Of a stretch of 64,000 nucleotides of DNA, positions 1,052-51,623 are shown in pieces (position 1 is the first letter of the stretch; every line of letters begins with the position of its first letter). The stretch lies in the IMG/VR virus record IMGVR_UViG_3300028888_000002. The stretch is one strand, 5' to 3'. This DNA is from a virus (lineage: Duplodnaviria; Caudoviricetes). A program made the position numbers and the translations under genes. The notes beneath the pieces were generated by a model, which was not told the origin of the DNA, did not search any database, and saw only the letters and a list, made by a program, of their open reading frames with translations.

Positions 1052-1750
1052 ATGGCATTCACCTGTTCTATGCAGAAGAAAATTGAGTCGTTCAAAAAGA
1101 ACGAATCCGCAGCGGGTCGTAAATTCTACGACGAATTTATTGAACCCCGTGCCCGTGAAATTCTTGAAGAATACGACGTGAACGAAGCCCAGGGCGGTAT
1201 GTGCGATTATTGGTATAACATCGGTGACGGTGTTGAAGATATGGAGCGTGACGACCGTAGTGGCTTTTTCTCTTATAACGACGGTGGCGTTCAAAAGACC
1301 TGGATGACTACTCCGTTTATGCTTGCGGGCGGTGGCTATCTTGACCCGAAGACGGAACCCGAATATGACCGCCTCCGTAAGAACTGCGAAGACGACTATC
1401 GTGAAGAATGCGAAAAGAACGGGGTTGAGTGCGATTTCAGTTCCGAAGAATACTACGAATTTGAAGACGCTTGGTCCTCGGAAGGTCTTGAAATTTTCGC
1501 TTATGCGGAAATTATGCTTTACAGCCGTAATTCCGACCGTGACGAATATACGCTTATTGCCCGTATCAGTCGTAGTTTTGACTACACCTACGGTCGTAAC
1601 CCGCAGGACGATTTGAACATTGAAATGGATTTGACTTCGGAACAGTTCACGAAGGAAAATGCAGACAAGTTCTTCGCTGCCGTGGAAGAGGCTTTTGCCA
1701 ACTATTCGTTTAGCCAGGGCGACAAGGAAATTAACGTCAAGGCAGATTAA
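1052..1750 (+). CDS. Acidic putative internal head (cargo) protein, tag B
   Basis: N-terminus MAFTCSMQKKIESFKKNE-S; GGAG RBS; very D/E-rich. Confidence 0.75.
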   Translation: MAFTCSMQKKIESFKKNESAAGRKFYDEFIEPRAREILEEYDVNEAQGGMCDYWYNIGDGVEDMERDDRSGFFSYNDGGVQKTWMTTPFMLAGGGYLDPKTEPEYDRLRKNCEDDYREECEKNGVECDFSSEEYYEFEDAWSSEGLEIFAYAEIMLYSRNSDRDEYTLIARISRSFDYTYGRNPQDDLNIEMDLTSEQFTKENADKFFAAVEEAFANYSFSQGDKEINVKAD

Positions 1751-1774
1751 GTCTGCAAAGGAAAGGTAAACACT

Positions 1775-2926
1775 ATGGCACTTAAACAGATTACTGCCAA
1801 AGATTTTAAGGATGCCGTTAGCAGTCTTACAAACGGCTACACCTGTTGGCATAAGTTACTCGGTCGCACCGACGCAGGCACGGAATTAGTTTTCGTGATT
1901 GGTTGGTCCGACGCAGGTTACGACGAAGACGACGCAAAGCAAAACGGATATGCCGATGGTAGATATACTATTTGCTCCAAGATTGCGTGTCAGTCCCGAT
2001 ATAACGGTAGTCAATCCGACTACGACGGTGACTTTGAAATGCCGTATGACAAGGAAACAGGCGACGTTTGGGACACTGACACTATGGTGTCTAACAACGA
2101 ATCCGATTGGGAAACCGACGCAGCTACTTACAACAAGGACGCACAGGCTATTTGGGACACCTACTGTGTCCCCGATGAAGACGGTTTCACTGCGTTAGAC
2201 GCTTTGTTTGAGTCCAAGAAATCGTCCGAAGCAAAGAAGCATACCTGTTCTATGCAGAAGAAAAAGGAAAGCCTTGCAAAGAAGACTGAAATGGTTCGTC
2301 CCGAAGACCCCGACGAACTTAAAGTTGGAAAATACACGGCAGACGTTTTGACCGCAGACGGTGATTTTATCTTGTCATTGCCCGCTTTCTATGACGACGT
2401 TGCTGAAACTGTCAAGGCTGCAAAGGACTACTTGCAGGAAGAATCCGATTATGTTAAGGACACAGGTCTTGTTCCTAGCAAAATCCACGTAACTACGGTT
2501 GTTGCTAAACGTGGTTGGAATATGCCACAGTTCGTTAAGGACGTTGACTTGAACGCTACCGAAGCGAAGAAGCCTGTTTGCTCTATGCAGAAGAAAAAGG
2601 AAAGCCTTTCTGCGAAGAAGTCCAAGAAGTGCGAAGGCTTGATGGACGACTTGCCGTATGACGCACCCGTAGCCATTGAAAGTCTGTGTGCCGAAATTAT
2701 GAGCCACACCGACGCATTTACCATTGAAGACGCAGACGTGGCTGAAATGTGCGGTAAGTGGTATATTCGTGATTACGCAAATGGTTCTACCGCAGCACAT
2801 AACGAAGACGAATTTGTTGACGAAGTTCTTGCAGGTCTTTCGGGCAGTCCCGTGGACGGCTCCCCGTTCGGTGCAGCCGAAGCCGAAGGATATGCTAGGA
2901 AGATTTACAACGAAGTCGTTGCTTAA
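1775..2926 (+). CDS. Three-module putative cargo polyprotein with two internal tag B copies
   Basis: Linkers FESKKSSEAKKHTCSMQKKKESLAKKTE and EAKKPVCSMQKKKESLSAKKSKKCE separate acidic domains. Confidence 0.75.
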   Translation: MALKQITAKDFKDAVSSLTNGYTCWHKLLGRTDAGTELVFVIGWSDAGYDEDDAKQNGYADGRYTICSKIACQSRYNGSQSDYDGDFEMPYDKETGDVWDTDTMVSNNESDWETDAATYNKDAQAIWDTYCVPDEDGFTALDALFESKKSSEAKKHTCSMQKKKESLAKKTEMVRPEDPDELKVGKYTADVLTADGDFILSLPAFYDDVAETVKAAKDYLQEESDYVKDTGLVPSKIHVTTVVAKRGWNMPQFVKDVDLNATEAKKPVCSMQKKKESLSAKKSKKCEGLMDDLPYDAPVAIESLCAEIMSHTDAFTIEDADVAEMCGKWYIRDYANGSTAAHNEDEFVDEVLAGLSGSPVDGSPFGAAEAEGYARKIYNEVVA

Positions 2927-2952
2927 AGAAATCCTACGACAAAATTATCAAG

Positions 2953-2979
2953 GTGCCCCGATTGTTCGGGGCACTTTTT
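2953..2979 (+). terminator. Rho-independent terminator
   Basis: GTGCCCCGA-ttgt-TCGGGGCAC followed by T tract. Confidence 0.8.
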
Positions 2980-3007
2980 GTATGCACGTTTTATTTCGCA
3001 CAAATTA

Positions 3008-3075
3008 AATATAATAGATTACCTAATTTATATAACAAATTACCTACAACATATAACTAGGTAACTTGTTATATT
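3008..3075. promoter_or_regulatory. Cluster of three TAGGTAA(T/C)(T/C)T(G/A)TTATAT boxes (two reverse, one forward) upstream of head genes
   Basis: Reverse copies about 3008-3025 and 3029-3046, forward copy 3058-3075; same motif as the early promoter spacer/-10. Confidence 0.65.
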
Positions 3076-3274
3076 TGACATTTTTTGTCATTTTATTTAT
3101 AACTTTTTTAAAATTGCACAAAAATTTTATTATATTCTGTTGTCAAGGGAGGGCATTTTCCCTGCCAATACTTGTCCGTAATTTTTATTGCAGACAAATT
3201 CCCTTGTAGGAGGGTGGCTTTCGCAGGCTACCTCTAACAAACTAAAAGATAACCCTATCAAGGAGAGCATTATT

Positions 3275-3772
3275 ATGCTTAAATTCCGTAAGAAACTCCG
3301 TGAAGACGACAATATCGTTGAAGTTGGCGACGTTAAGTTGGACGCTAAAGAATCCGAAGTCGTGTTCGCAGACAAAGACAAGGACATCCAGGTTGTCGTT
3401 TCCCCCGACCCCGAAAACGAAAACTCTGTGACCGTCGCAGTTCTTTCTAACTCCAACGACGACGTGGAAGACGAAGAAGTTCTCGGCTCCGCTTCCGTTG
3501 AAGGTAGTGAAGATAAAGGTGCTGAAGAATCCCGCAAGGCTGCTCGTCGTGAGGCATTCCGTAAGCGTCTTGAAGCCCGTCGTTCTGCAAAGAAGTCCCC
3601 CGCACCCGCCCGTAACGAGGCTCGTGTCCAGGCTTTCCGCAAGCGACTTGAAGCCCGTCGTGCTGCAAAGCAAGCAGAAGGTAAGACTTCTACTTCCACA
3701 GCCGATGCCCGTAAAAAGGCTATCGGTGAAGCAAGGGCAAAATTCCGTTCCAAGATTGGCAAGAAAGCCTAA
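3275..3772 (+). CDS. Probable prohead core/scaffolding protein
   Basis: Immediately upstream of MCP; AGGAG RBS before ATG 3275; acidic N half, basic repeated EAFRKRLEARR helices; N-terminus MLKFRKKLRE-D. Confidence 0.6.
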   Translation: MLKFRKKLREDDNIVEVGDVKLDAKESEVVFADKDKDIQVVVSPDPENENSVTVAVLSNSNDDVEDEEVLGSASVEGSEDKGAEESRKAARREAFRKRLEARRSAKKSPAPARNEARVQAFRKRLEARRAAKQAEGKTSTSTADARKKAIGEARAKFRSKIGKKA

Positions 3773-3790
3773 CCAAAAGGAGAAGACATT

Positions 3791-5440
3791 ATGAAGACTT
3801 CTGTTGAAGAAATGTCCAATCAGAAATACAACCGCCTCGTAGAAAGCTACGAAGCCCGTTACAGCAAGCAGTTTGAAGCACTTGCAAAGTCCCCGTCGTT
3901 CAAGGGCACCTTGTCCAAGAACGCTATGTTCAACCTCGGTCAGCAGATGGACAACTACAAGCGTTACGAAAGTTTCGTGAACGAAAATTCCTCGGCTTCT
4001 AGCCTGGGTGTGTTGCCCCGTGTTGCTCTTGACCTTATTTCCGCTACCTACGCACTTTCTATCGCTCCGCAGCTTGCAAGTGTGCAGACGCTTGAAGAAT
4101 CCCAGGGTCTTATCTACTTCAAGAAGACCTTTACCCACGGCTATCCGCTGACTGCACAGGAAGGACTTCAGCAGCTCCCCGAAGACCGTTGGATGGGTGC
4201 CGACGGCAAGTTTGAAGGCGACAAGACCTTTGCGGGTGCTTGGAAGAAGTGGCTTGACACCCGTGGTCGTCCCGCTGACAGTGGCGAAGGTGACTTGGAT
4301 GCTGCTACTCTCGCTGCCAAGAACTTTGACGCTGTGACTTTCACCGCCCTCAAGGGTTGGCAGGCTTCCCCGACTGCATATATGTCCGAACGTCAGTTCG
4401 CTATTGCAGCCGACGGCAAGGCTACCATTAAGTATGGTGTTGGCAATCTTCGTTGGAACACCCCGATTAACGTCCGTCTTGTTGACAAGAACGGCAACAT
4501 TGAAGACATTGTTGGTGTCTGTGGTGGTCCTGGTCAGCTCCCGACCTTCTACGGTAAGTTGTCTGTTACCGCTGCTGCTGTTGGTCCCGACCTTGTTCTT
4601 ACCATTCCGACAGGCTACCAGGGTGGCGTGACTTATGACGTTGACTTTGAAAAGGCTCCCGACGTTCCTGCTATTGAATACGCTCTTGACAACAAGGTTG
4701 TCAGTGCCGAAATCATTGGCTTGAAGGAAATGATGGGCACGTTCAAGTCTTTCCAATTCAACAAGCGTTTTGGTAAGGCTGCGTCCGACGAAGTTCTTGC
4801 TGACCTTACGGGTCATATGGCTATGGCTGAAAGCGAAAAGATTCTTGCAGCCTACGTCCGTTGTGCTAACAAGTGGAAGCCGATTACCTGGAATCTTAAC
4901 AAGACCGCAGGTATCAGCGAATTTGAACACCGTCAGTCTTTCCTGTATGCTATCCAGGCTGCTTCTGCTGCTATCGGTAGCCGTGCAGGTAAGGGTCACG
5001 CCAACAAGATTGTCGCAGGTTACGTCGCTTGTCAGTATATTGCGTCCCTCCCTGGTTTCCGTCTTGCTCCGCAGACGAACCTTGTTGGTCCGCACGTCTA
5101 TGGCACTCTTGAAAACGAAGGCATTACTGTTATTCGCTCCAACACTATCGTGGCTCCGAACGAAGTTATCTGTGCTTACAGCTCCGACAACAGCCCGTTT
5201 GAAGCACCTGTCGTGTGTGCAACGTATATGCCTGTGTTCTTGACCGACACTATGCCTGTCGCAGACAATCCGTTCCAAACGCAGCGAGCAATCGCTTCCT
5301 GGAAGGCGATTGAACCTGTCGTGGCTGAATTTGTGCAGCGTATCGTTATCACGAAGGATGCCGAAGCACCTGCCGACGTGAACGTGTTCCTTACTACCAC
5401 CCCGAACGGTGGCAGCGGTAGCGGTTCTAGCAACGGCTAA
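3791..5440 (+). CDS. Major capsid protein, T4 gp23-like
   Basis: 549 aa; segment LISATYALSIAPQLASVQTLEESQGLIYFKK parallels the gp23 MVRR..NLIA.DI.GVQPM..PTG.VF region; C-terminal ATYMPV..DNPFQ..AIAS; likely propeptide ending FVNE; strong codon bias; terminator follows. Confidence 0.85.
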   Translation: MKTSVEEMSNQKYNRLVESYEARYSKQFEALAKSPSFKGTLSKNAMFNLGQQMDNYKRYESFVNENSSASSLGVLPRVALDLISATYALSIAPQLASVQTLEESQGLIYFKKTFTHGYPLTAQEGLQQLPEDRWMGADGKFEGDKTFAGAWKKWLDTRGRPADSGEGDLDAATLAAKNFDAVTFTALKGWQASPTAYMSERQFAIAADGKATIKYGVGNLRWNTPINVRLVDKNGNIEDIVGVCGGPGQLPTFYGKLSVTAAAVGPDLVLTIPTGYQGGVTYDVDFEKAPDVPAIEYALDNKVVSAEIIGLKEMMGTFKSFQFNKRFGKAASDEVLADLTGHMAMAESEKILAAYVRCANKWKPITWNLNKTAGISEFEHRQSFLYAIQAASAAIGSRAGKGHANKIVAGYVACQYIASLPGFRLAPQTNLVGPHVYGTLENEGITVIRSNTIVAPNEVICAYSSDNSPFEAPVVCATYMPVFLTDTMPVADNPFQTQRAIASWKAIEPVVAEFVQRIVITKDAEAPADVNVFLTTTPNGGSGSGSSNG

Positions 5441-5465
5441 TTGCTTAACTCCCTGTTGAGTGAAG

Positions 5466-5496
5466 ACACCCCTGCGTAAAGCGGGGGTGTTTTTTT
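5466..5496 (+). terminator. Rho-independent terminator after MCP
   Basis: ACACCCCTGC-gtaaa-GCGGGGGTGT plus T tract. Confidence 0.85.
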
Positions 5497-5569
5497 ATAG
5501 GGGGGTTGTCCGAAGTTGAAAAAATTTTATTATTTTTATTGACGATAAACTTCAAATGGGGTAATGCTT

Positions 5570-5701
5570 ATGGCAGAAGAAACCACCGCACCCGATTCTT
5601 ATTCTTACCTGGCTTACATTTTGGCTATGTATGCCGACGAAGAACAGCGTGACGAAACCCTGTGGACGGGAAACTTCACGGGCGATGTTCTTCCGTTCTA
5701 G
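5570..5701 (+). CDS. 43-aa small protein (absent from ORF track)
   Basis: MAEETTAPDSYSYLAYILAMYADEEQRDETLWTGNFTGDVLPF; GGGG RBS; phage-like codons. Confidence 0.55.
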   Translation: MAEETTAPDSYSYLAYILAMYADEEQRDETLWTGNFTGDVLPF

Positions 5702-5735
5702 CGTATAACAATTTTTCCAAACAAGGGACACCCGT

Positions 5736-6686
5736 ATGTCTAACAAGAAATTCAAGATTACCGTTAAAGAAAGCAAGAAGTCCGAGGGTCTTCCCCCGAA
5801 GCGTTTGGGCAGCAAGCGTCAATATCGTTCCCGTGCGGACCTTATTAACAAGATGAAGCAACTCGGAGCCGTGGAAATCACGACTAGCAAGCAGTTCAAC
5901 GACATTAAGAACTCGCAGTGGCTCCATACCGCAGGTTACGCCCTTGACACCAACGGCAACCTTGTGGCACAGTCCTACTACGGTGACAAGGACGGCAAGT
6001 GGTATTACACTTCCACCCGCAACTTTGATAGCGACTACCTTCCCGAAAGCAAGCAGCACGAAAACCGCACAAAGGAAGAAGAAGTCACTAATATCTTTAA
6101 GGGTATGAAAGAATGGGCTACCAAGTGGTCCAACTCCGACAAGGACCGCAAGACCATTGCAGACAATCTTGACCTTGAAGCAGTCCAGGAAAATATGTCC
6201 GATATTGTTGAAATTTTGGACAATAACTTTGAATGGGACGGTTACGGGTTTAAGTTCGTTGTGGTTGGCGATTACGAAGACGACGACACCCGTGACGAAG
6301 CCGAAGCAAATCAGTGGAACAGTTGCTATGGCGTTTGTGAAGAAATTGCAGACCTTATAGGCATTCCCAATGAAGGTCACGTTATTGGTGAAATGAATAC
6401 CTATTTTTGGGAAGACATTGAAGCGGTTTGGCGTGACGACGAAAGCAAGAAATCCGAAAGCCTTTCGCTCAAACAGAAAGAACTTAAAGATATGGCACGT
6501 TACGGTGAAGCCGAAGACATTACTACCATATCCGACGCAGAAGCAAAGGAACTTCGCAAGAAGGGCATTGAAACGGTGGGTGTTAGCCGTGGGACCTACG
6601 GAATGAACGGTGCCTTGCTCCGTGACAAGGACGGCAAGAAATACGTGATTACCGCCCGCAGCTCTAACCTGTTCTACTTTGTATAG
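5736..6686 (+). CDS. Three-module putative cargo polyprotein, tag A
   Basis: MSNKKFKITVKE-SKKSE-G; internal linkers LPESKQHE and DDESKKSES; modules 1 and 3 resemble each other. Confidence 0.8.
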   Translation: MSNKKFKITVKESKKSEGLPPKRLGSKRQYRSRADLINKMKQLGAVEITTSKQFNDIKNSQWLHTAGYALDTNGNLVAQSYYGDKDGKWYYTSTRNFDSDYLPESKQHENRTKEEEVTNIFKGMKEWATKWSNSDKDRKTIADNLDLEAVQENMSDIVEILDNNFEWDGYGFKFVVVGDYEDDDTRDEAEANQWNSCYGVCEEIADLIGIPNEGHVIGEMNTYFWEDIEAVWRDDESKKSESLSLKQKELKDMARYGEAEDITTISDAEAKELRKKGIETVGVSRGTYGMNGALLRDKDGKKYVITARSSNLFYFV

Positions 6687-7616
6687 AATTTTTTAAATAA
6701 AGGAAAAACTCTTATGACTAAAACATTCACCTGCTCTATGCAGAAAAAGAAAGAAAGTTTTGCGAAGAAGTCCGAAGCAGCCGAAATCAAGGACAAGCAG
6801 TATTACCTTGATATGTTTGACAAGGCATACAAGGAATGCGTCCAACTTGACATTGACAATGGCGGTAATGGCGAGGGTTGGGCAGATTACTTTACCGACA
6901 CAAAAAATTATGGGGATTTCACTCAAAAAGAAGCCGACGAAATTGTTGGCTATTATATGGAGTTCCACCCCGAAGCCGATGAGGAACCCGATAGACCTTA
7001 CAGGGATTGGTTGGATAATACGAGGGGTCTTGAACTTACTCCGTTGGACAAGGAAATCACCCGTATCTTGAAAGCCCTGTATGCCCCTAATGAATCCACG
7101 AAGTCCGAAGGCGTTGAAGCCTTGAAAGACAAGGTTGTGTCCGACGGCACCTTGAAGCCCGAAGACCTTATTCCGAAGTTCCTTAATGCCTTGAAGCACG
7201 ACGAAACTGCTCACTCCAAGTTCTTGAAGGACTATCCCGAAATCCTTGAAATTCAGTCCTGGGACGACGTGGACGACGAAACGAAGTCTATGCTTGTGGA
7301 CGAACTTACCGACGCACTTAACGGTATTGCACCCGACGGATATTTCTTTGGTGCGTCCGATGGCGACGGAGCCTGCTTCGGCTTTTGGAAGGTTGACCCC
7401 GACGAAAGCAAGAAGTCCGAGGGTGCGAATGCCCTACCAACTAAAGAAGAAATGAAACGTGTGGTTGACGGTTTAAAAAAAGGCTATGTCCACCCAAAGT
7501 GTTGCTGTCCGATAAAAACTCCAAAAAATGGCTAAAAACAGCATTTAACCCACAGACCCCATAAATTGCTATATTTGTATTGAAAAAATATAGTTTAATG
7601 GGTAGAACATAACTCA

Positions 7617-8594: not shown

Positions 8595-8595
8595 T

Positions 8596-12061: not shown

Positions 12062-13567
12062 ATGTCTTTGAAAATCAAAACACACAAGTTTGAAAGCCGT
12101 GTAGCCCCCGCTGCACAGCGTCGTCCGTTTGGTCGTATGGCTGAATCCAAAAAGTCCGAAGCTACAAGTTTCGGTGCGGGTATGTCTAAACGCACGGACC
12201 TGTCCAAAATGCGTAATTTGGGTGAAGTCATAGACGTTCTTGAAGAACACAAGAAACTTATGGAAAACAAGGCAAAGGATTTGTCGCAAAGCAAGGAAGA
12301 CTTGCAGGCTGCGATTAAGTCCCTTAACGAATTTTCCAAACACGTCCTGTTCTTGAAGCAGCAGTCCGTAAAGGGTATCAAGGACGCACTCACGTTCAAC
12401 AAGTCCCCCGAAGTCAAGGCTGCTGCCGATATTGAAAAGCACTTGAAGAATGCTCTTAAAATCCTTTACTCCGATTATGAGAACATTCCCGATGTTACTC
12501 AACTGCTGACAGTTGTTGACAGTCGTTATGCTACCCGTGGTGACAAGGTTGTGACCGCCTGGGTTGACAATGCGACCCGTGCTATTGAAGTGGACGCAAA
12601 GACGATTAAGGACAGCATCGCTGCGGGCGATATGTCCGAAGACGACGTTGTGAAACTTGTGACGGTTACTTACGCTACCCACGGTGTCAAGAACAAGGAC
12701 ACCGTTGAAAAGGTAACGCCCGTCCTTGAACGTATGAACGCTTTGCTTGCTTCGGCTCCGAAGATTGAAGAAGCGGTCATTGACCCGAAGGAATTTAAGG
12801 AACTCCGTGACCTTGTGGAACAGATTGTTAAGGAAGCGTCCGAACCGACGCTTACTGTCAAGACTGCTATCACTACGCTTTCAAAGGGCGAACTCGCAAC
12901 CGTCCCGTCCGAAGCGTTTGTGTCCGAGGGTCTGCTTGACAAACTCAAAGACCTTGTGGCTTCTCTCAAGGACAAGATTTCGTCCCTGTGGAACTCGTTT
13001 ACTTCCCTGTTCTTCAACCTGGAAGACGAAGCCCTTGAATCGGCTGAAACGTTTGCCGAAGTTGAAGAAGGCTTTGCCATTATGGGCATTGTCGTTGAAT
13101 CCTACGTCGCAAAGAGTGTTCCGCTCGGCAAGCAGTTTGAAGTCCTTACGAAGTCCGTGCTTCACTGCTGCGATAAACTTGTCAAGGACGCTTCCCTTGC
13201 GGGCGAATTTGACGACGAAGTGATTTACGCAGAAGAAGCCGTCAATAATGCCGTTGAGTCGTTCCAGGCTCTCGGTGAAGCCTGCAAGACTTTGAAGAAC
13301 GCATTGTCGTATCACAAAAACGAAGACAATATGAACGTTATCGGTATTCTTGCGGACGCTATCACGCAGATTGTGAACGACGACAATGGCAGTGCCGATA
13401 CGGAAGGTGGCGACGACTCCGAAGACGACGAAAATCCTGTAATCCGTGACGTTGAAAAGGAATATAGCCCCGCAGGTGGCGAGGGCGGTGAAGAAGGTCC
13501 CGAAGCGAACGGTGGCGAGAACGAAGCCCCGAACCCCGCTGAAATGGGCGAACCCGAAACGTTCTAG
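12062..13567 (+). CDS. Large helical putative head-internal protein, tag A
   Basis: MSLKIKTHKFE-S, MAESKKSEA linker, SEGLLDKLKD motif, acidic low-complexity tail. Confidence 0.75.
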   Translation: MSLKIKTHKFESRVAPAAQRRPFGRMAESKKSEATSFGAGMSKRTDLSKMRNLGEVIDVLEEHKKLMENKAKDLSQSKEDLQAAIKSLNEFSKHVLFLKQQSVKGIKDALTFNKSPEVKAAADIEKHLKNALKILYSDYENIPDVTQLLTVVDSRYATRGDKVVTAWVDNATRAIEVDAKTIKDSIAAGDMSEDDVVKLVTVTYATHGVKNKDTVEKVTPVLERMNALLASAPKIEEAVIDPKEFKELRDLVEQIVKEASEPTLTVKTAITTLSKGELATVPSEAFVSEGLLDKLKDLVASLKDKISSLWNSFTSLFFNLEDEALESAETFAEVEEGFAIMGIVVESYVAKSVPLGKQFEVLTKSVLHCCDKLVKDASLAGEFDDEVIYAEEAVNNAVESFQALGEACKTLKNALSYHKNEDNMNVIGILADAITQIVNDDNGSADTEGGDDSEDDENPVIRDVEKEYSPAGGEGGEEGPEANGGENEAPNPAEMGEPETF

Positions 13568-15208: not shown

Positions 15209-17473
15209 ATGCCGATAAATGATAGTGCAGGTGTAGGTGTTTACCTTATTGACAAGTCGCAGCGTTCTTCTGTCGCTATCGGTTTCCGTTCTGCGGGTGC
15301 CATTGAAGCAGACAGGGGACTGTGTAACAAGCCAACCTTGATTTCTAGCGAAGACGACTACGTTAAGGCGTTTGGCACTCCGTCTATGGAGCGTCACGGT
15401 CTTGCTGCTATGGAAGCATATTTGCTCGCACAGCGTAAGGTCCCGCAGGTTCTCGTCCGTGCAAAGGACCCGACAATGCTCCCGTCGGACACCCCGTTCG
15501 GAGCTATGAAGTTTACCGTGGAAGACGGCAAGTTGGTCGTGAACACGATGCTTCCCGCTATTGCGATTGCTTCCCCAGGCGAGGGTATGGACAATGAATC
15601 CTACCTTTACTTTAAGGGCGAAGGCGATTACTGCTCCAAAGAACGCAAGAACGTTGTCGTTCGTTTGAGCCAACCTGTCACGCAGTCTGCTTACGCAAAG
15701 GAAGGTCGTTCCGTCCGTGTGCAGTTGTTTGACTTCAACGGTTCCAACCATATTGACGAAGACGTTCCCGCAGAACTCGCATTCAACCCCGACGTTGCTA
15801 ACTTGATTTCTGCTACGGGCGATTTCAAGTTGGACGGCTTCCTGGTTGGTTCCGCTGCGGGCAGTGACGCAGGTGCTTCGGGCGAACACCCCGTAAAGAT
15901 TACCGCTTTCGTGAACGGTCGTGTTTACAATATGCCCGAATTTGATTATTCGTCTTTGTTTGACGGTTCCGATTGGGGTATGTTTGATAAGTTCGCCCAG
16001 GCTGCGAAGGGTGCTACCTACGCAGACGGTGAGCCTGTCATTGAAGAAGATTGGGACACCCCGCTTGTTTATACCCCTGGTGTGGGTGTGGAAGGTTCGG
16101 GTTCCGACGAAAACGAAAAGTATGGCGTGTATTACCTGTATTCGGGTAAGGACGGTGGACCGCAGAAACTCAACTGCTTCGGTCTGTCCATTTCCCTTAC
16201 GGCTACCGTGGAACTCCCGATTGCCGAAGACCCGACTTCTACCCGTAAACTCGCCCCTGGCTTCTATGGCTATCCGTGCGGTAGCGTGACGGTTGCGAAG
16301 AAGGGTGACGGTTACGTTGCGAAGTTCAACATTAGCACGAACCTTTACCTCAAGAACCGCAGCACCTATATGTTTATGGGTGAGCAAAATGAGTATTGGG
16401 CTTCCTACTACAAGACCTACTGCGTGAATGACTTCGTGGTGTCTATGTCTTACGACGACTTTGATTCCAACTACGTGTCTATGCAGATGGACGCTGTAAT
16501 GGGCGGTTCCAAATACCTTGTTCCGAAGTCTAGCCAAATCTTTGGCGACTACACCATTGATTACGGACACGACGACATTACGAACAAGCTGCACTACTTT
16601 GAGGGTATGATTAAGGCTAACACCATTCCTATGCAGAACAAGTCCTACGCTTACTCGCAGGCACTTCAAGTTTTGCTTGGGGACAACCTTACCCGTTGGC
16701 GTTGTTTGGCTACCCCGAACCTGGGTGACGTTATGAACCCTGCGGATTACATTTCCGCTATCACGTCGTCTAACGAAGCAACTCTCGGCTTGTCTAACAT
16801 TGGTCGTGCTGCTGCTACGGACGTGTTCGGAAATCTTACGGGTCGTCACGGCAACCGCTTTATTGCCGACTACTGTCAGTATGCTTACCGCACTCTTGCG
16901 GGCAAGCGGACCGCAGTCACTATGGCTTGCCTTGTCGCAGACTTGCTCAACAGCCATTACAACGACGGTATTGAAGCACGTCCCCCGTTTGGTTACAACT
17001 ACGGTCAAATCGCTTGCTTGTCCTTGTCGCAGCAGTTTAGCGGACCCGAACGCAATATGCTTGCAAGACAGCTCAAGATTAACCCTGTTGTTGAAGACGG
17101 TGGTTACTACATTTGGGAAGAACGCACGTCGCAGCTTACCGACACGTCCTTGTCCGACGTTCATTGTATCATTTCGTTCCTGTGGATGAAGTTCGCTATC
17201 TATGACGCTATGAAGTCTTTTGTGGCTGAATACAACGACCAATCTACGGTGGACCGTGGTCTTGCAGTTCTCGGTCAGTTGAACCAAAACTTCATTGACA
17301 AGAACTACATTGAAGAAGGCATTGTAAGTGCCGACAAGAACGTTATCGGTGACGAAGTGCTTCGCTTTGACTACGCAATCCGCTTCAAGGGCGTTGCCCG
17401 TTTCGTGGACGTTTATATCACCGCATACAGTCAAACGCAGACTTTGGCTGTGTCGCTCGCACAGGAGGCTTAA
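15209..17473 (+). CDS. Contractile tail sheath protein
   Basis: N-terminal AGVGVYLIDKS, KPTLISSEDDYVKAFGTP; C-terminal LKINPVV..YIWEERT..FVAEYND sheath domain. Confidence 0.88.
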   Translation: MPINDSAGVGVYLIDKSQRSSVAIGFRSAGAIEADRGLCNKPTLISSEDDYVKAFGTPSMERHGLAAMEAYLLAQRKVPQVLVRAKDPTMLPSDTPFGAMKFTVEDGKLVVNTMLPAIAIASPGEGMDNESYLYFKGEGDYCSKERKNVVVRLSQPVTQSAYAKEGRSVRVQLFDFNGSNHIDEDVPAELAFNPDVANLISATGDFKLDGFLVGSAAGSDAGASGEHPVKITAFVNGRVYNMPEFDYSSLFDGSDWGMFDKFAQAAKGATYADGEPVIEEDWDTPLVYTPGVGVEGSGSDENEKYGVYYLYSGKDGGPQKLNCFGLSISLTATVELPIAEDPTSTRKLAPGFYGYPCGSVTVAKKGDGYVAKFNISTNLYLKNRSTYMFMGEQNEYWASYYKTYCVNDFVVSMSYDDFDSNYVSMQMDAVMGGSKYLVPKSSQIFGDYTIDYGHDDITNKLHYFEGMIKANTIPMQNKSYAYSQALQVLLGDNLTRWRCLATPNLGDVMNPADYISAITSSNEATLGLSNIGRAAATDVFGNLTGRHGNRFIADYCQYAYRTLAGKRTAVTMACLVADLLNSHYNDGIEARPPFGYNYGQIACLSLSQQFSGPERNMLARQLKINPVVEDGGYYIWEERTSQLTDTSLSDVHCIISFLWMKFAIYDAMKSFVAEYNDQSTVDRGLAVLGQLNQNFIDKNYIEEGIVSADKNVIGDEVLRFDYAIRFKGVARFVDVYITAYSQTQTLAVSLAQEA

Positions 17474-18601: not shown

Positions 18602-19348
18602 ATGCTAATTCCTGTAAACTCCCTGCCGTCCAACTTCAAGCCTTACAAATTCAAGTCTTTCAAAATGAAAGCTATGAGTTTGCAGCAGGCGATTGACTTG
18701 GGCAAGAACCCGTCTTTGAAAGACATTGTGAAACTCTTGCAGACGCTTGTGGGCGACGAAATTGACGCAAGCGTTCTTGTCCCTGTGGACGTGAAGTATC
18801 TTGTAGCTATGCTTGCGTTCCACGCTTACCCGAAGCAGAAGTGGGACCTTGAACTTACTTGTCCGCACTGTAAGGAAAAACATAAAAGGGCTATCACTAT
18901 GAGCGATTTCCCGCCTGTTCCTAGCCTTGCAGCGGACGACCCCTACCCGCTCACCATTGACGACGGGAAGCACGTTTGGGAATTGGGCTATGCGTCCGTT
19001 GACGCTTGGGAAGAAATGGTTAGTAAGTTGGGTATCACAAAGGACACCGACCTGGACGATTTGGACCCCGCACAGTATATTGACATTGTGGCTCCGTATA
19101 TCCTGTCTGTTGACGGCAAGAATGAACGGACCCGTGAAACGCTTTTGGAAATTGACGACTTCGGCATTTTGAACCTTATGCTTGAAGCTATCAAAACCTA
19201 CTTCCTGGATGACACGCAGGCTGAATTTGAATGCCCGAAGTGCAAGAAAAAGTATAGTGTGTCGTTGAGTGCGGTTGAGGTCACTCAATACACCCCGTTT
19301 CTTGACAAGACAGCGGTTAGCAAGTATAAGACTAATTTTAGGCTTTGA
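18602..19348 (+). CDS. Baseplate hub/tail assembly chaperone, T4 gp26-like
   Basis: Two Cys pairs (CPHC, CPKC), LVPVDVKYL motif, upstream of the tape measure; ends KYKTNFRL at CTT-TGA-C. Confidence 0.65.
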   Translation: MLIPVNSLPSNFKPYKFKSFKMKAMSLQQAIDLGKNPSLKDIVKLLQTLVGDEIDASVLVPVDVKYLVAMLAFHAYPKQKWDLELTCPHCKEKHKRAITMSDFPPVPSLAADDPYPLTIDDGKHVWELGYASVDAWEEMVSKLGITKDTDLDDLDPAQYIDIVAPYILSVDGKNERTRETLLEIDDFGILNLMLEAIKTYFLDDTQAEFECPKCKKKYSVSLSAVEVTQYTPFLDKTAVSKYKTNFRL

Positions 19349-37581: not shown

Positions 37582-37583
37582 CT

Positions 37584-43756: not shown

Positions 43757-43771
43757 CGGGGATAACGTTCT

Positions 43772-44122: not shown

Positions 44123-44134
44123 AGGAAAACAGCT

Positions 44135-46063: not shown

Positions 46064-46248
46064 TTGATAGACAGAAACGGGGCAGGCTTATGGCTACCGC
46101 CCGACAAAATTTACAGAATGCGTTTGAAGCGGTCAAGGAAGTTTCCGATATGTATGGGGGCGAGAATGCGGACCTGGTTGACCTGTATATGCGAATAGGT
46201 TGTCTGCATAACGAAATCGCAAACTTCGGGATTATCAAATTGCCATAG
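46060..46248 (+). CDS. Small hypothetical protein
   Basis: ATGA overlap, GAGGA RBS. Confidence 0.55.
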   Translation: MIDRQKRGRLMATARQNLQNAFEAVKEVSDMYGGENADLVDLYMRIGCLHNEIANFGIIKLP

Positions 46249-46253
46249 ACTCC

Positions 46254-46282
46254 AAAGCCCCTGCCGATTGGCGGGGGCTTTT
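46254..46282. terminator. Bidirectional terminator between convergent genes
   Basis: AAAGCCCCTGCC-gatt-GGCGGGGGCTTTT. Confidence 0.75.
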
Positions 46283-46303
46283 ACGATACAATGTCGTGGA
46301 TTG

Positions 46304-46702
46304 TTAGTCTTCGGAATTAAGGTCGGCTTCGGTAACGTAGCCCTGCTTGACGCACCATTCAATGAAGTCGTCCTTGCTGTCAATGGCTTCTTCCAGGTAT
46401 TCGTGCAGGTCGCTTTCCTGGAGGGAAATCATATTGCCGTAGCCGTTCATATAGAAGTATTCGTCGTTGGGGTTGAACGAATCCTGTTCAAAGCGGTAGC
46501 GACCACCATAGAACGCACGTTGGACGATATTAAGTGCGTCGTCGCCACAGGCAATCTTGATGCCCTCGTCGTCCAGGGTAAGCACCTGGTCGTCGGGCTG
46601 TTCTTCCTGGAGGTATTCCTGCCCGTATTCGTCAATAAGGGATTGATAAACGTCGTCGTTTTCTTCGGATGCGACGGCTGCGATAAGTTCCTTGTTTTCC
46701 AT
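46304..46702 (-). CDS. Highly acidic protein, FNPNDEYF.NGYGN family
   Basis: AAAGGA RBS before ATG 46702; own promoter; very D/E-rich. Confidence 0.8.
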   Translation of the reverse strand: MENKELIAAVASEENDDVYQSLIDEYGQEYLQEEQPDDQVLTLDDEGIKIACGDDALNIVQRAFYGGRYRFEQDSFNPNDEYFYMNGYGNMISLQESDLHEYLEEAIDSKDDFIEWCVKQGYVTEADLNSED

Positions 46703-46753
46703 AATGGTTCCTTTTGTTGTGGTCGTGCGACCTGGGTTAAACGTTCTACCGTA

Positions 46754-46782
46754 AATATACAATTATCTTCCCCAGGTGTCAA
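46754..46782 (-). promoter_or_regulatory. Divergent early-type promoter for the acidic gene
   Basis: Reverse-strand TTGACA-17-TATATT. Confidence 0.8.
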
Positions 46783-46838
46783 CACCTATTATTAAAATAA
46801 TTGCAGAAAATAAATCAAACAAATTTTTAATCTACCTA

Positions 46839-46867
46839 TTGACAGCAACCTGGTAATTTGTTATATT
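46839..46867 (+). promoter_or_regulatory. Early promoter P8
   Basis: TTGACA-17-TATATT. Confidence 0.85.
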
Positions 46868-46895
46868 TCGGTATAGACCACAAGCCGAGGATTTA

Positions 46896-47168
46896 ATGAC
46901 CTACACCGAAATGTTTGACTGCTTGAAAGCCAGGGGCTTCACCCTGGACTTTGACCCGACGGCAGACCCCGTAGGTTTCAGCAACGTCCGTGTCTATTGG
47001 AAGGATATTTCGTTCGGGACTATGTATTTCCATAACGCTATGTTATACACTGAAAAGGACCATACGTGGGTTTCTCAATTCAGTTATGGTTGGACCACGA
47101 ACCCGAACGACTTTAAGGAATTTATGGAAGCGTTTATCAAGAGCTGCGAGGAAAAGAATGAAGCGTGA
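46896..47168 (+). CDS. Hypothetical protein
   Basis: CCGAGGA RBS. Confidence 0.7.
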   Translation: MTYTEMFDCLKARGFTLDFDPTADPVGFSNVRVYWKDISFGTMYFHNAMLYTEKDHTWVSQFSYGWTTNPNDFKEFMEAFIKSCEEKNEA

Positions 47169-47595
47169 CGAACAGTTTATGTCTTACGAAGAACTTTACG
47201 AAGCCTACCAAACCTGCTACGACTGTATGCGTGTTTGGGAAAACAACTTCAACGACCTTAAAAAGAAGTTCACCCGCCTGGAACAGTTCAATGCAGAACT
47301 CAAGCAGAACATATCCAATGGCGACGTGAATTGCCTGGTCTATTTGGACAAGTGCCAGGAACTTGAAAACGAAATCGCAGACTTGCGTGAAGCCTTGTCC
47401 GCTTACCAACGAAACGAAAAGTTGGATATTCGGGATAACCGCAGGCTCCGCAAGAATCTGTTGCTTACCCTGGCTAGTTACGCCAACTACAAGGGAAATG
47501 CTATGTTGGGGTCTGTCGTGTCCGACACGTTGAAACGTGCTGCCCGCAAGCACAGACAGGCTGCATTGTTCCGCAGAATGGCGGGGGAGGTCTAG
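47158..47595 (+). CDS. Coiled-coil hypothetical protein
   Basis: GAGGA RBS before ATG 47158. Confidence 0.65.
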   Translation: MKRDEQFMSYEELYEAYQTCYDCMRVWENNFNDLKKKFTRLEQFNAELKQNISNGDVNCLVYLDKCQELENEIADLREALSAYQRNEKLDIRDNRRLRKNLLLTLASYANYKGNAMLGSVVSDTLKRAARKHRQAALFRRMAGEV

Positions 47596-47598
47596 GCT

Positions 47599-47814
47599 AT
47601 GGCATTGAAAGGACTTGAACACCCCGAAGAAGTGTTTGGGCGACGTAGTGGTGTCACGTTCCGCTGTGGGGCGTGTGGCTGCGGGTTCTTCCAGGAAATG
47701 CGGTATATCCGTTTCTACGACAAGGGTAGCGGTGTTTACCGCTACGTTATTCAAACCGAATGCCCCAACTGCAAGGGCGTAGTCGCTGCCACGTCCGATG
47801 GGTGCCTGGGGTAG
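47599..47814 (+). CDS. Zn-ribbon protein
   Basis: CGAC..CPNC. Confidence 0.65.
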   Translation: MALKGLEHPEEVFGRRSGVTFRCGACGCGFFQEMRYIRFYDKGSGVYRYVIQTECPNCKGVVAATSDGCLG

Positions 47815-47817
47815 ATT

Positions 47818-48438
47818 ATGGCTGCTACGTTAGATAAAATATCGCCCGAAGTTATGGACGAACTGCGGTCCACCCACGAACAGATTAAGGCGTATAAAGC
47901 GAAGATAAACGAACTTACGGAACGTATGGACGAACTTGTTCCGAAGCACGACCTTGCCTACTGCCGTGAGTTGGGCTGCAAGCATACCTATCAGTGCAAG
48001 GACTTCTGTCACTGCCACAGTTGGTGCATACGCTCAAAGTGGGCACACGGGGCGTGGCGTGACTGCTACGAAAAGAACACGCCCGTGTTCAAGCCCCGTG
48101 TTGAATATCCGACCCTGGGTTGGAAGCAGGTGACTACTTGCGGTATGAAGTGGGACGGGGTATGGCACAGCTTTACGAAAGTAATCAAGGAAACCGAAAA
48201 GACGCTTGTCCTTGAAAGAAACGAACAGCTATTGAAAAGCACCATTTTCACCATTGAGGACGTGACCTATATTAAGAGCCGTAGCGGGACGACCTATATG
48301 TGTGCGGACGACCCCGATACCCTGGATATGCAGGTGATTCTGTTAAAGGTCGCTAACTCCGAACGTAACGAACGCACGAAGCATTTAATCACCCCCGAAA
48401 CCCCGTTGCCCACAGAAGTGGACGGAATAGAACTTTAA
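47818..48438 (+). CDS. Cys-rich hypothetical protein
   Basis: Operon gene. Confidence 0.7.
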   Translation: MAATLDKISPEVMDELRSTHEQIKAYKAKINELTERMDELVPKHDLAYCRELGCKHTYQCKDFCHCHSWCIRSKWAHGAWRDCYEKNTPVFKPRVEYPTLGWKQVTTCGMKWDGVWHSFTKVIKETEKTLVLERNEQLLKSTIFTIEDVTYIKSRSGTTYMCADDPDTLDMQVILLKVANSERNERTKHLITPETPLPTEVDGIEL

Positions 48439-48456
48439 CCATAAGGAACACGACCA

Positions 48457-48816
48457 ATGAAAACCTGTGAAGACTCTCTCTATGTGAAGTCAAAGACCCC
48501 ACGCCACAAGGACCGCTATTGGGTATTTGACCTGGCAACTATCAATACCCTGCACCACGGCTTTGAAACGGGCAAGGACGGCAAGCCTATCCCGTTCGTG
48601 GATTTGCCCGACGCACAGTCCAGGGCACGTTTCTACGATACGGAATGTGTCTTTGCTATCTATCGCAAGAACACGAACAAGTTCTACGTCTTGACGCACA
48701 GACAGGTGGTCCAGGCGATTATGGCTCCCGACGAAGTGTCCGATATGCTGAAAAGGATAACTAACACCGTGGACGGGGATAAGTGGTGTCCGTGTCCCGA
48801 CGGTTACGACGATTAA
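48457..48816 (+). CDS. Hypothetical protein
   Basis: AAGGA RBS. Confidence 0.7.
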   Translation: MKTCEDSLYVKSKTPRHKDRYWVFDLATINTLHHGFETGKDGKPIPFVDLPDAQSRARFYDTECVFAIYRKNTNKFYVLTHRQVVQAIMAPDEVSDMLKRITNTVDGDKWCPCPDGYDD

Positions 48817-48834
48817 CCACAAAGGAACAGGACT

Positions 48835-49047
48835 ATGGCAATATGCGAATTTTGCGGGAAAGAAGTCCCCGAAGAAGATACCTACCTTTACGAAATGACC
48901 TGCCCGAACGGTGCGGTGTATTCCCACGACATTTGTCCCGACTGTGCGTCTGCGATTGTCGGGACTGTAAACAAGGTCCGCAGCGAACGCAGCCGTAAAG
49001 TGAGCCAGGAACACTTGTATGATGATATTCCTGGCGAGGTTCTTTAA
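48835..49047 (+). CDS. Zn-finger protein
   Basis: CEFC..CPDC. Confidence 0.65.
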   Translation: MAICEFCGKEVPEEDTYLYEMTCPNGAVYSHDICPDCASAIVGTVNKVRSERSRKVSQEHLYDDIPGEVL

Positions 49048-49062
49048 GCAAAGGAAAACCCT

Positions 49063-49341
49063 ATGAATACAGCAATCTGCATTACAGCAATTATCGTCGC
49101 AGGCATTGTGGCTATTGTCGCATTGTCGCAGTATCACCTTCGTAAGACCACCTGCAAGCACAAGTGGAAAATCATTGATTCGGACGTTAAGGAATTTTAT
49201 AGGGAACGTCCATCATTGAATTACAGCAGTCGCTACAACTTGAAAATCTACACGCTCCAATGTGACCACTGCGGGGAAGTCCGTATGGTTACGGACGAGG
49301 AACTTACGGAGCGTTTCCGCAATAAACTGTCTAACGGCTAG
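49063..49341 (+). CDS. Membrane-anchored Zn-ribbon protein
   Basis: N-terminal TM, CKH..CDHC. Confidence 0.7.
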   Translation: MNTAICITAIIVAGIVAIVALSQYHLRKTTCKHKWKIIDSDVKEFYRERPSLNYSSRYNLKIYTLQCDHCGEVRMVTDEELTERFRNKLSNG

Positions 49342-49344
49342 GAT

Positions 49345-49665
49345 ATGGATATGGCTACACAGATACCCGATATTGCTTTGGAAATTACTTTGTCGTGGTT
49401 GGCACGGTTCAACCGCCACGAATTTTTTACGAAGGAACTTTACAAGAAACTGCCTGCTTACAAGAAAAGCGGTATTAGGCGGGACAAGACCGAAATCCAG
49501 GTGGCGTTTATCTGCAAGGCGTTGCAGGACAGGGGCATTTACACGACACCCTGCGGTATAGCCTGGTGCCACGTATGGGACGACTCCGAAACCGTGACTG
49601 AATACCTGGAACGCTATCAGCCTATCTTTGACGGCTACGTGGCGTGGTGTGCGAAGCAGAGGTAG
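49345..49665 (+). CDS. Hypothetical protein
   Basis: Operon gene. Confidence 0.65.
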   Translation: MDMATQIPDIALEITLSWLARFNRHEFFTKELYKKLPAYKKSGIRRDKTEIQVAFICKALQDRGIYTTPCGIAWCHVWDDSETVTEYLERYQPIFDGYVAWCAKQR

Positions 49666-49668
49666 CGT

Positions 49669-50250
49669 ATGTCCGAAGACGAACTTTACAGACCGCTCAA
49701 CAGCCAGGGAATGAATGTCTTTGACATTATGGAGTTCCACGGAATGACAGGTCCCGTGAAAATTGTCAAGGACGTGTTGGCTGCGAAGAATGCCGAAATC
49801 GCACGGTTGCAGGAACGCAACGGGCATATTGACGACGGCAGGGTGAAACTGTTGGAAGCCCACGCCAGGACCTTGCAGGACACCGTGAACAGCCTGCAAG
49901 CCGACCTGGAACAAGCCCGCATTTTTATCAAGGCTTTGGACGTTACGAAGTTGGTTGCGGAACGTGACAGCCTATCCAGGCAGAATGAAGAACTAATCGC
50001 AGAAGTTGAAGACTACAAAGAGAAGTATTGCAAGTGGCACAATTTTACGCAGGACATTTGCACAGTGTTCGGGGACTCAACCTACACCTACGTGGCTATG
50101 GAGGGTTGGTTGAAGAAAATGTGCGATGCCGACGTTTTGGACCGCTACCTGGCTTTGGCTGACGACGTATGCAAACGCCTGTTGAAAGTCAAGCCCCACG
50201 AATGGGAAGACCCTGTTTGCAAAAAGAGCAAGAGCCTGTGTAGCTTTTGA
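49669..50250 (+). CDS. Coiled-coil protein; N-terminal domain shared with 35113..35574
   Basis: DELYRPLNSQGMNVFDIMEFHG. Confidence 0.7.
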   Translation: MSEDELYRPLNSQGMNVFDIMEFHGMTGPVKIVKDVLAAKNAEIARLQERNGHIDDGRVKLLEAHARTLQDTVNSLQADLEQARIFIKALDVTKLVAERDSLSRQNEELIAEVEDYKEKYCKWHNFTQDICTVFGDSTYTYVAMEGWLKKMCDADVLDRYLALADDVCKRLLKVKPHEWEDPVCKKSKSLCSF

Positions 50251-50369
50251 CGAAAAATAAACTATATTTGTAGTTAAGTGTTTAAGCCTGCGGGTGACTT
50301 CGTTATGTAGGCACCCTTGTCCACCTGCCTAGCGGACATACCCCGTATAGCACACTACCTTACGCAACG

Positions 50370-50402
50370 CCCCTGCGGACTAACACACCGCAGGGGTATT
50401 TT
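50370..50402 (+). terminator. Rho-independent terminator
   Basis: CCCCTGCGG-actaacaca-CCGCAGGGG plus TATTTT. Confidence 0.65.
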
Positions 50403-50422
50403 AATTATTTTACAATTTGCTA

Positions 50423-50451
50423 TTGACAGCTATCGGGTAATTTGTTATATT
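50423..50451 (+). promoter_or_regulatory. Early promoter P9
   Basis: TTGACA-17-TATATT. Confidence 0.85.
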
Positions 50452-50485
50452 TGGGGTAGAAACCACTTAAACCGAGGATAGCTGA

Positions 50486-50680
50486 ATGAACCCACACGAA
50501 CACGCCTTTGAATTTTGCCTGTATATCCAACAGTGCGGACGTGCTGTCGCTGCCCGAAACTTCACCGTCAAGGGCGACGACATTGAAGACGCTGCCGACA
50601 ATGCCGTGGCAAAGGGTATGCGTATCTGTAAGCGTGAGAAATGGAACTACGGGGGCGTGGAATGTTGGGGTATGGTGTGA
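50486..50680 (+). CDS. Small hypothetical protein
   Basis: CCGAGGA RBS. Confidence 0.7.
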   Translation: MNPHEHAFEFCLYIQQCGRAVAARNFTVKGDDIEDAADNAVAKGMRICKREKWNYGGVECWGMV

Positions 50681-50765
50681 CCGCCCCTATCCGCACTTAC
50701 GGAAAATAATCTATATTTCCTGTTGAATAATTTAACCCACGTTGCCGTGGTATTAGGAGTTTAAT

Positions 50766-51623
50766 ATGAAACTAGGCGATGTTTACAAATCGTATGACCT
50801 TGTGCGTGAACGTGCTGCACGGGTGAAGAAAGCCACGGGGCTTGATTGGGAAATCGGTGGTGGCTCCCAGGTAAACCTTTGGGTTACGCTTAATGGCGGG
50901 GACACCCTGTCCGAACAGGCACAGGATGGTATCTGTGCGTCCCTGGTAAAAGTATTTGACAAGGCTGCTCCGAAAGGACTGACGGCTGCGTTGGCAAAAC
51001 AGGGCACTTGGGATAAGGCAAAGATTGGGGCAAGCAACAATCAAGTGTGGTGTGACTTCCCGAATAAGGTTATGAGCCAAATATCCGTGGAAGACTTTGT
51101 TGAACTTTGCGATGCTCTTATGCAGCAGGGTAGTGCTGAAATACAGAAAGTGGCGGGTAAGCCGTCCGAATCCCGTAAGCCTAATTGCTCTATGCAGAAG
51201 AAGAAAGAAAGCCTGCTCAAAAAGACCGAAACGGTTTGGGACGGGGAAGTGCTGACCTTTTCGTTTGACGGTGTGAACGTTATGGTTCACGAATGGTCCG
51301 AAGAAGGCGAGGGTCGCTACGTCCAGGAATACACTATGGACGTTCGTGGTTCGTTCAATGACCTTACGGGTGTTATCAATTTGATTGCTGACAAGGCTAT
51401 CTATGACGACGCTTACAAGAACCCCGATAATTGGACCGTCCTTGACGTTAGCAATGGTTCTGTGACGCTCTCTGCTGCAACTACGCAGGACGAAAACGGT
51501 GACAGCGACCCCGACGGAAACTTTATTGCGGACTTTACCGTAGTTGTGAACTGCACTCTTACGAAGCCTGCACACCAAACTGAAATACACAATGCGTTGT
51601 CCGACGCTAAAATTCAGCTTTAA
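50766..51623 (+). CDS. Two-module putative cargo polyprotein with internal tag B
   Basis: Linker KPSESRKPNCSMQKKKESLLKKTE; AGGAG RBS. Confidence 0.78.
   Translation: MKLGDVYKSYDLVRERAARVKKATGLDWEIGGGSQVNLWVTLNGGDTLSEQAQDGICASLVKVFDKAAPKGLTAALAKQGTWDKAKIGASNNQVWCDFPNKVMSQISVEDFVELCDALMQQGSAEIQKVAGKPSESRKPNCSMQKKKESLLKKTETVWDGEVLTFSFDGVNVMVHEWSEEGEGRYVQEYTMDVRGSFNDLTGVINLIADKAIYDDAYKNPDNWTVLDVSNGSVTLSAATTQDENGDSDPDGNFIADFTVVVNCTLTKPAHQTEIHNALSDAKIQL

Follow-up and report, generated by a model that had tools for sequence, protein, structure and literature searches.

The stretch of DNA analyzed here (the window; 64,000 nucleotides of IMG/VR record IMGVR_UViG_3300028888_000002) comes from an uncultured phage of ~215 kb that is known from gut metagenomes and has a T4-type capsid protein. 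Several of its proteins carry a short peptide unit, tag B, which is the subject of this report. A six-frame search of the window found five copies of the tag B core C-S-M-Q-K-K, all on the + strand, with Cys codons at 1064, 2246, 2579, 6732, and 51186. They fall in four open reading frames (ORFs): 1052-1750 (Cys at residue 5), 1775-2926 (residues 158 and 269), 6714-7535 (residue 7), and 50766-51623 (residue 141). Thus, the tag lies near the N-terminus in ORFs 1052-1750 and 6714-7535 and is internal in ORFs 1775-2926 (two copies) and 50766-51623 (one copy), and the same double use recurs in related phages. From the amino-acid frequencies of the window, ~0.0007 copies of C-S-M-Q-K-K are expected by chance over all six frames. 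At the DNA level, a 15-nt core of tag B matched 6 times with up to 2 mismatches, compared to 0.09 matches expected, and none of 100 shuffled sequences reached 6. Once stripped of their tags, the four carrier proteins comprise nine modules, which show no significant mutual BLASTP similarity (best match, E = 0.004 over 26 residues). The six-frame and BLASTP results bear out an earlier note on this DNA, which had reported five copies, N-terminal and internal, in four unrelated proteins.

The full conserved stretch, C-S-M-Q-K-K-[KI]-E-S-[LF]-x-K-K-x-E, is longer than the tag that was first described. A unit consists of a specific core (2-7 residues and then C-S-M-x) and, behind it, two K-K-x-E sites, each with a small residue after it. 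Only the x-x-C-S-M-x part is specific to tag B; the second half, K-K-x-E-S-[LF]-x-K-K-x-E, is made of the same unit as a general linker of the E-S-K-K-S-E type, of which the window has 8-9 copies and two near-complete ~215-kb relatives have 18-25. A basic-basic-x-E site follows tag B in all window copies (5/5), and in the three internal copies (3/3) E-A or E-S stands six residues ahead of the Cys in the pattern E-[AS]-[KR]-K-x-x. The suggestion that tag B could be excised as a peptide between such sites therefore stands, and the flanking Glu sites would suit a T4-type head protease.

The same genomes contain a second leader, tag A (type sequence M-S-K-M-K-I-K-V-H-E-S; core K-I-K-V-H-E). The two tags share gene clusters, cargo modules, and a K-K-x-E joint after the leader, and they differ in their cores (K-I-K-V-H-E compared to C-S-M-x-K-K-[KI]-E), in length (tag B is ~2-fold longer and has two Glu sites), and in position (tag B is much more often internal).

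Selection on the tag B peptide

IMG/VR contains 15 loci related to the window, including near-complete contigs of 215.7 kb (G001) and 215.3 kb, and the window is collinear with 151-212 kb of G001 at ~70-80% DNA identity. No close cultured relative was found by megablast of 25 kb against GenBank phages, and the capsid protein is at most 29% identical to those of the nearest cultured phages, so that there is no virion proteome to borrow. Related ~215-kb phage contigs contain ~35 further non-redundant copies of tag B, about half of them N-terminal and half internal. A pattern scan of 2.9 million viral contigs returned 38 stretches; all genuine copies came from contigs of this group, and most of these contigs were also recovered with the capsid protein. 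In a metagenome pattern scan, the matches listed (80 loci) included 72 motif matches, 70 without the extended motif and two genuine tag B copies, which says little about distribution.

Codon comparison of the five window copies confirmed the synonymous differences previously noted (TGT/TGC for Cys, AAG/AAA for Lys, and TCG/AGC/AGT for the second Ser). In the wider set, Cys is encoded by TGT 17 times and by TGC 19 times, the second Ser by AGC, AGT, TCT, TCG, and TCC, and the Lys and Glu codons match the genome background. This free synonymous variation across ~35 copies indicates that tag B is selected as protein, as had been proposed from the window alone. An opposite reading is that conservation acts on the nucleic acid, with the invariant ATG serving as an internal start, or the repeat as a recombination or regulatory site, and the peptide being incidental. 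The Met is indeed invariant, copies 2 and 3 in the window have 27 identical bases in common, the joints do act as recombination seams (see below), and TCT encodes the first Ser in 29 of 36 copies, compared to a background of 16%. However, the TCT bias follows from the near-complete avoidance of eight or nine 4-bp palindromes in these genomes, including CATG and TCGA, because TCC-ATG and AGC-ATG create CATG and TCG-ATG creates TCGA. Moreover, neighboring synonymous sites are free to vary, codons of both the AGY and the TCN family encode the second Ser, and all N-terminal copies keep an upstream in-frame start. We rejected a DNA-level element or internal start as the source of the motif because palindrome avoidance explains the TCT bias and the other synonymous sites vary, and we regard nucleic-acid-level conservation as having a very remote chance of being correct.

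We also examined how strict the core is. A search that required only the downstream half of the motif recovered C-S-M in 34 of 36 copies and S-S-M in one, and relaxing one core residue at a time added one S-S-M and one A-S-M. Altogether, Cys is replaced in 3 of the 37 copies found without requiring it (Ser twice, Ala once). Ser-Met, Lys-Lys, and Glu-Ser are invariant among the copies found, and the fourth core position is Q in 24, A in 4, N, S, and L in 2 each, and V and T in 1 each. These counts imply that the Cys is strongly preferred but not essential, and they correct the earlier view of an invariant CSMQKK in which an invariant Cys may make a metal or disulfide contact: the Gln position varies freely, and an essential Cys chemistry is not supported, given the three replacements. 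Two other candidates were discarded. A C-x-x-Q thioester of the complement C3 or alpha-2-macroglobulin type is ruled out by the variable Gln position and by the Ser and Ala replacements of the Cys. A lipobox or secretion signal ([LVI]-[ASTVI]-[GAS]-C) is ruled out by the absence of a hydrophobic stretch, by the 2-7 mostly basic residues before the Cys, and by the internal location of half of the copies.

Leader exchange and recombination at linkers

Orthologous modules carry different leaders in different phages. ORF 1052-1750 shares 58% identity in its mature part with G001 151072-151743, which begins with tag A, and the homology starts right after the tag unit; in L002, a linker joins this module to another domain that precedes it. 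Among 15 homologs of this module from a database of 5.8 billion proteins, nine begin with tag B and five with tag A, as does the G001 ortholog. A maximum-likelihood tree of the mature region of this 16-member family placed about 3 leader changes (2-3 across bootstrap trees), with one tag A sequence nested among tag B sequences at branch lengths of ~0.03.

Similar exchanges were found for the other carriers. Relatives of ORF 1775-2926 conserve the N and C modules and differ in the middle modules. Its C module follows an internal tag B in the window and G001 and is encoded in G002 as a stand-alone gene of 122 residues that has tag B at its N-terminus (L083:18014-18382, 77% identity). The middle module of ORF 6714-7535 follows a linker in the window and G002, follows an N-terminal tag B in L004, and has no leader in G001 and G003, and the first module of the same ORF lies behind tag A plus a linker in L002. 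ORF 51638-53038 and its G001 ortholog have an N domain (68% identity) and a linker in common, after which the window has an internal tag A and one module, and G001 has an S-S-M form of tag B and a different module in the place of tag A. In ORF 50766-51623, the N domain (68% identity) and tag B are kept in L048; the module that follows the tag in the window gave no tblastn match in L048, whose module thus appears to be different.

The same cargo therefore takes tag A, tag B, a plain linker, or no leader, which implies from sequence comparison that the leaders are interchangeable. This conclusion bears directly on the proposal in the earlier note that tag B marks a second loading route or a different docking partner, with the Cys making a disulfide or metal contact; a bolder form of the proposal gives the excised, basic, Cys-containing peptide a job of its own, like adenovirus pVIc. 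Consistent with a separate route, two clearly different cores coexist in every genome examined, the Cys is present in 34 of the 37 copies mentioned above, and an excised peptide would be strongly basic. In addition, no ORF in the window and three related genomes carries both tags, and two-tag ORFs are always B plus B. The claim that no protein has both tags thus extends beyond the window, but it does not amount to significant exclusion, as the counts are small and some of the few B-plus-B cases are orthologs of one another. By contrast, close relatives carry the same cargo with tag A or tag B through repeated, recent swaps, and three otherwise typical copies have Ser or Ala instead of Cys. Orthologs with differing leaders, and about 3 changes within one 16-member family, imply interchangeable leaders rather than a distinct pathway. 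A separate loading route is therefore not supported by these comparisons, and we consider it distinctly improbable.

The codons shared by leaders and linkers also mark sites of exchange. A cassette of ~340 bp is 94% identical in DNA between the window (6774-7110) and L002 (L002:17933-18269), where it lies in different genes of the two phages; its acceptor in L002 is the homolog of gene 12062-13567, which has taken up the cassette at its linker. The identity starts at 6774, the last codon of tag copy 4, and both ends fall exactly at K-K-x-E codons, which implies that linker codons act as recombination seams. In relatives, five internal tag B copies still have a Met 2-6 residues upstream, which is what the in-frame joining of once-separate genes would leave behind. 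A side observation concerns L003:5621-6328, an ortholog of ORF 1775-2926 in which a stop codon follows a few residues after tag B, with no module behind the tag; it is probably a deletion or recombination intermediate.

These findings raise the question of whether tag B is anything more than an extended protease site or linker. In that case, C-S-M would be part of the protease recognition sequence, the N-terminal copies would be leftovers of cassette shuffling, and the proteins would enter the prohead by other means. This reading accounts for the second half of tag B, which shares the K-K-x-E unit of plain linkers, and for hybrids of tag B and plain linker (L003 6035). It also fits the internal location of half of the tag B copies, a far higher share than for tag A, and the existence of modules that need no leader and of proteins with linkers only. 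However, in 18 independent genes the tag remains at the extreme N-terminus, with an in-frame start conserved 2-7 codons upstream, and plain linkers occur without the C-S-M core, which thus carries extra information. Moreover, the leader that tag B replaces, tag A, is built like a T4-type targeting leader. We therefore judge a pure linker function to be unlikely.

Structure predictions agree with a portable, unfolded unit. In an AlphaFold2 model of ORF 1052-1750 (16-row alignment; mean predicted local distance difference test score [pLDDT] 84.8, predicted template-modeling score 0.80), residues 1-18 were modeled as coil with pLDDT <50, and the fold began at residue 18-19, right after the second Glu of the tag. 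The model of ORF 1775-2926 showed N and C modules of fair confidence, and residues 147-299 (except 218) had pLDDT <50. That alignment had five rows only, and the low-confidence stretch, which holds both tags and the middle module, had almost no depth, so that the model predicts folded flanking modules and is uninformative on the form of the tags. Overall, the models place tag B in predicted disordered segments beside folded modules and outside folded domains.

Proposed role of tag B and comparison with known systems

The gene context of the tagged proteins resembles a T4-type head module. The capsid protein (ORF 3791-5440) matches Pfam PF07068 (Gp23) with 40.9 bits, above the curated cut-off of 24.4, and also phrog_138. 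It has two candidate maturation sites, after E60 (K-R-Y-E, codon 3968-3970) or E65 (V-N-E, codon 3983-3985), both of which are kept in ten relatives; the K-[RK]-Y-E-S sequence at residues 57-61, a form of the linker unit near the position where T4 gp23 is trimmed, is likewise conserved in ten relatives. In G001, a putative head maturation protease (148715-149752) matches phrog_207 (E = 1.6e-21) and is encoded 1.3 kb upstream of the ortholog of ORF 1052-1750. It was found via PHROGs only: a six-frame search of two relatives with Pfam S77 gave no match, and neither did a PDB sequence search with the G001 protease. Beyond residue ~185-189, this protein no longer resembles other phage proteases or the S77 profile, and its own E-S-K-K-K-E linker lies at residue 186. 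With the gene order taken from G001, the genes for 3 of the 4 tag B proteins of the window either lie in the interval from the protease gene to the capsid gene or closely follow the latter, and this is where T4 has its prohead-core genes.

The combination of a portable, unstructured leader that ends in Glu, its placement on unrelated head-module proteins, a shell of the gp23 type, and a putative protease of the gp21 type with the same site at its own domain boundary follows the principle of the T4 capsid targeting sequence (CTS). We therefore favor, with a probability of roughly 0.6, the reading that tag B is a second, interchangeable leader of the capsid-targeting kind that doubles as a cleavable joint and is removed by the head protease. 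The tag B proteins would then probably be built into the prohead interior. Uncut tag B would help to bring whatever is attached to it, one module or several in a chain, into the prohead core during assembly, and the T4-type head protease would then cut after the Glu residues of the tag, which would free each module and turn the tag into small basic peptides. In this scheme, tag B would do the same job as tag A, the two replacing each other on the same cargo, and the K-K-x-E codons common to both leaders would double as seams for the exchange of modules and leaders. Cleavage at the tag B sites, the capsid-targeting role, and the virion location of the proteins are all points that we infer.

Several observations weigh against this proposal. 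The protease matches Pfam S77 (PF03420) with 21 bits, under the curated cut-off of 27, and its gene lies outside the window. Some tag B genes are far from the head module, at 50.8 kb in the window and at 5.9, 105, 187, and 202 kb in G001, and some modules are leaderless (G001 and G003), so that a leader is dispensable in some cases. At P3, the proposed tag B sites have Lys, in contrast to the aliphatic residue favored by T4 gp21; tag A and the V-N-E site of the capsid protein fit this preference better than tag B does. We know of no tested precedent for a targeting signal that acts from an internal position. Finally, a leader function offers no explanation for the strict conservation of C-S-M and no reason why tag B, unlike tag A, is so often internal. 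A more specific idea would be that the C-S-M core docks on a different prohead component and that the excised, basic, Cys-containing peptide of 12-14 residues has its own role in the capsid, for example as a protease cofactor or a DNA-bound counter-ion. The pVIc peptide, with its job for the adenovirus protease, would be a comparable case. We hold this idea to be highly improbable.

The favored reading of tag B as a leader and cleavable joint can be compared with two groups of described systems. The T4 CTS is a propeptide of 10-20 residues that loads unrelated internal proteins (IPI, IPII, IPIII, and Alt) onto the scaffolding core and is removed after Glu by the prohead protease gp21 (PMC3012670, PMC5694885). 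Like the CTS, tag B is a short leader on otherwise unrelated proteins that ends in Glu at a presumed site of the head-protease type, and this phage group has in common with T4 a gp23-type capsid protein, a putative gp21-type protease, and cargo that varies between relatives while the leader is conserved. Unlike for the CTS, two leader classes coexist here and swap on the same cargo, and tag B is found between modules as often as at the N-terminus. In addition, the presumed P3 residue is Lys and not aliphatic, and there is no sequence similarity: the T4 leader shares no residues in register with the tag B consensus, so that the likeness is confined to architecture and proposed function.

In the giant phages SPN3US, phiKZ, and 201phi2-1, propeptides are cut by gp245/gp175-type proteases at A/S/G-x-E; in SPN3US, multiple cuts occur within propeptides and the protease cuts its own C-terminal part (PMC10052503, PMC5694885). 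Trimming after Glu (presumed for tag B), several sites per propeptide, and conserved N-termini on diverged paralogs are features that these systems and tag B have in common, and the linker at the end of the catalytic domain of the G001 protease resembles the C-terminal self-cut of the SPN3US protease (PMC5694885). By contrast, giant-phage propeptides are mostly 111-254 residues long and protein-specific, whereas tag B is a portable tag of ~20 residues, and leader exchange or use as an inter-module joint is not described for these propeptides in the papers cited (PMC10052503, PMC5694885).

Tag B thus appears to add a second leader class that is interchangeable with tag A and serves as an inter-module joint. 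The T4 CTS is the model for the loading of proteins into phage heads and their delivery with the DNA, and has been put to use as a handle in engineering. What this phage group has seems to be a richer version of T4 loading, in which two unrelated leaders would do one job, leaders would double as joints that string several cargo modules together, and cut-site codons would serve as exchange seams between phages. If this is true, it would show how a phage keeps a fast-changing set of cargo compatible with one machine for loading and release, and tag B would be a second portable tag for packaging foreign proteins.

Other features of the window

The features of the window are collected in Table 1. 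Linker-bearing and tag-A-like proteins lie among the tag B genes, and tail genes follow after the capsid gene.

Table 1. Tag B copies, their carrier proteins, and other features of the 64-kb window
Feature	Position	Strand	Remarks
Tag B copy 1	1052..1105	+	N-terminal 18-residue unit of ORF 1052-1750: 4 residues, C-S-M-Q-K-K-I-E, then S-F-K-K-N-E
Cargo module of ORF 1052-1750, alpha/beta domain	1106..1750	+	Predicted model; 15 homologs
Three-module protein: N domain, tag B, middle module, tag B, C module	1775..2926	+	
Tag B copy 2, internal	2231..2290	+	Glu at 2228-2230 precedes; K-K-T-E at end
Tag B copy 3, internal	2564..2635	+	Glu at 2561-2563 precedes; K-K-C-E at end
Scaffold-like charged ORF	3188..3772		Directly upstream of capsid gene
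Major capsid protein, T4 gp23 family	3791..5440	+	Pfam PF07068, phrog_138
Head-module protein, tag-A-like leader and two E-S-K-K-S-E linkers	5736..6686	+	Linkers at 5769-5786, 6441-6458
Tag B copy 4	6714..6776	+	N-terminal 21-residue unit of ORF 6714-7535
Three modules of ORF 6714-7535	6777..7535	+	E-S-x-K-S-E linkers at 7092-7109, 7404-7421
Protein with tag-A-like leader and linker	12062..13567	+	Linker at 12143-12160; acceptor site of shuffled module in L002
Tail sheath	15209-17473		
T4-type baseplate protein	18602-19348		
Two-module protein with internal tag B	50766..51623	+	
Tag B copy 5, internal	51171..51230	+	Glu at 51168-51170 precedes; K-K-T-E at end
Linker E-S-K-T-A-E and internal tag-A-like leader in ORF 51638-53038	52088..52135	+	

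The cargo module of ORF 1052-1750 had no Pfam or PHROG match, and ESM Atlas gave nothing usable; Foldseek searches of its model against PDB and BFVD returned only E >0.04, and the best Z in VIA, 7.2, was within background. ORF 3188-3772 is rich in Arg, Lys, Glu, and Ala, is highly charged with a repeated R-K-R-L-E-A-R-R, and has no family match; by position and composition, it looks like a scaffold protein. Two sub-threshold family matches were obtained in or near the tagged genes. L042:10032-11027 (G001 150032-151027), which lies between the protease and the first tagged gene, matches DUF4313 (PF14190) with 25.6 bits compared to a cut-off of 27. The C-terminal part of ORF 51638-53038, a module chain with two linkers and an internal tag A, matches DUF6926 with 26.5 bits compared to 27.

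Finally, the avoidance of 4-bp palindromes differs between these phages. Observed compared to expected counts in the window are 0/103 for GATC, 0/174 for CGCG, 2/153 for GCGC, 5/257 for CCGG, 4/204 for TCGA, 4/182 for GGCC, 6/191 for GTAC, and 8/126 for CATG. In G001 (215.7 kb), AGCT, CATG, GATC, GCGC, and GTAC are all absent, with 0 CATG sites compared to 746 expected. The avoided set is not the same in the two phages, as AGCT occurs at 120/254 in the window and at 0/608 in G001, and this difference suggests adaptation to different host restriction systems.

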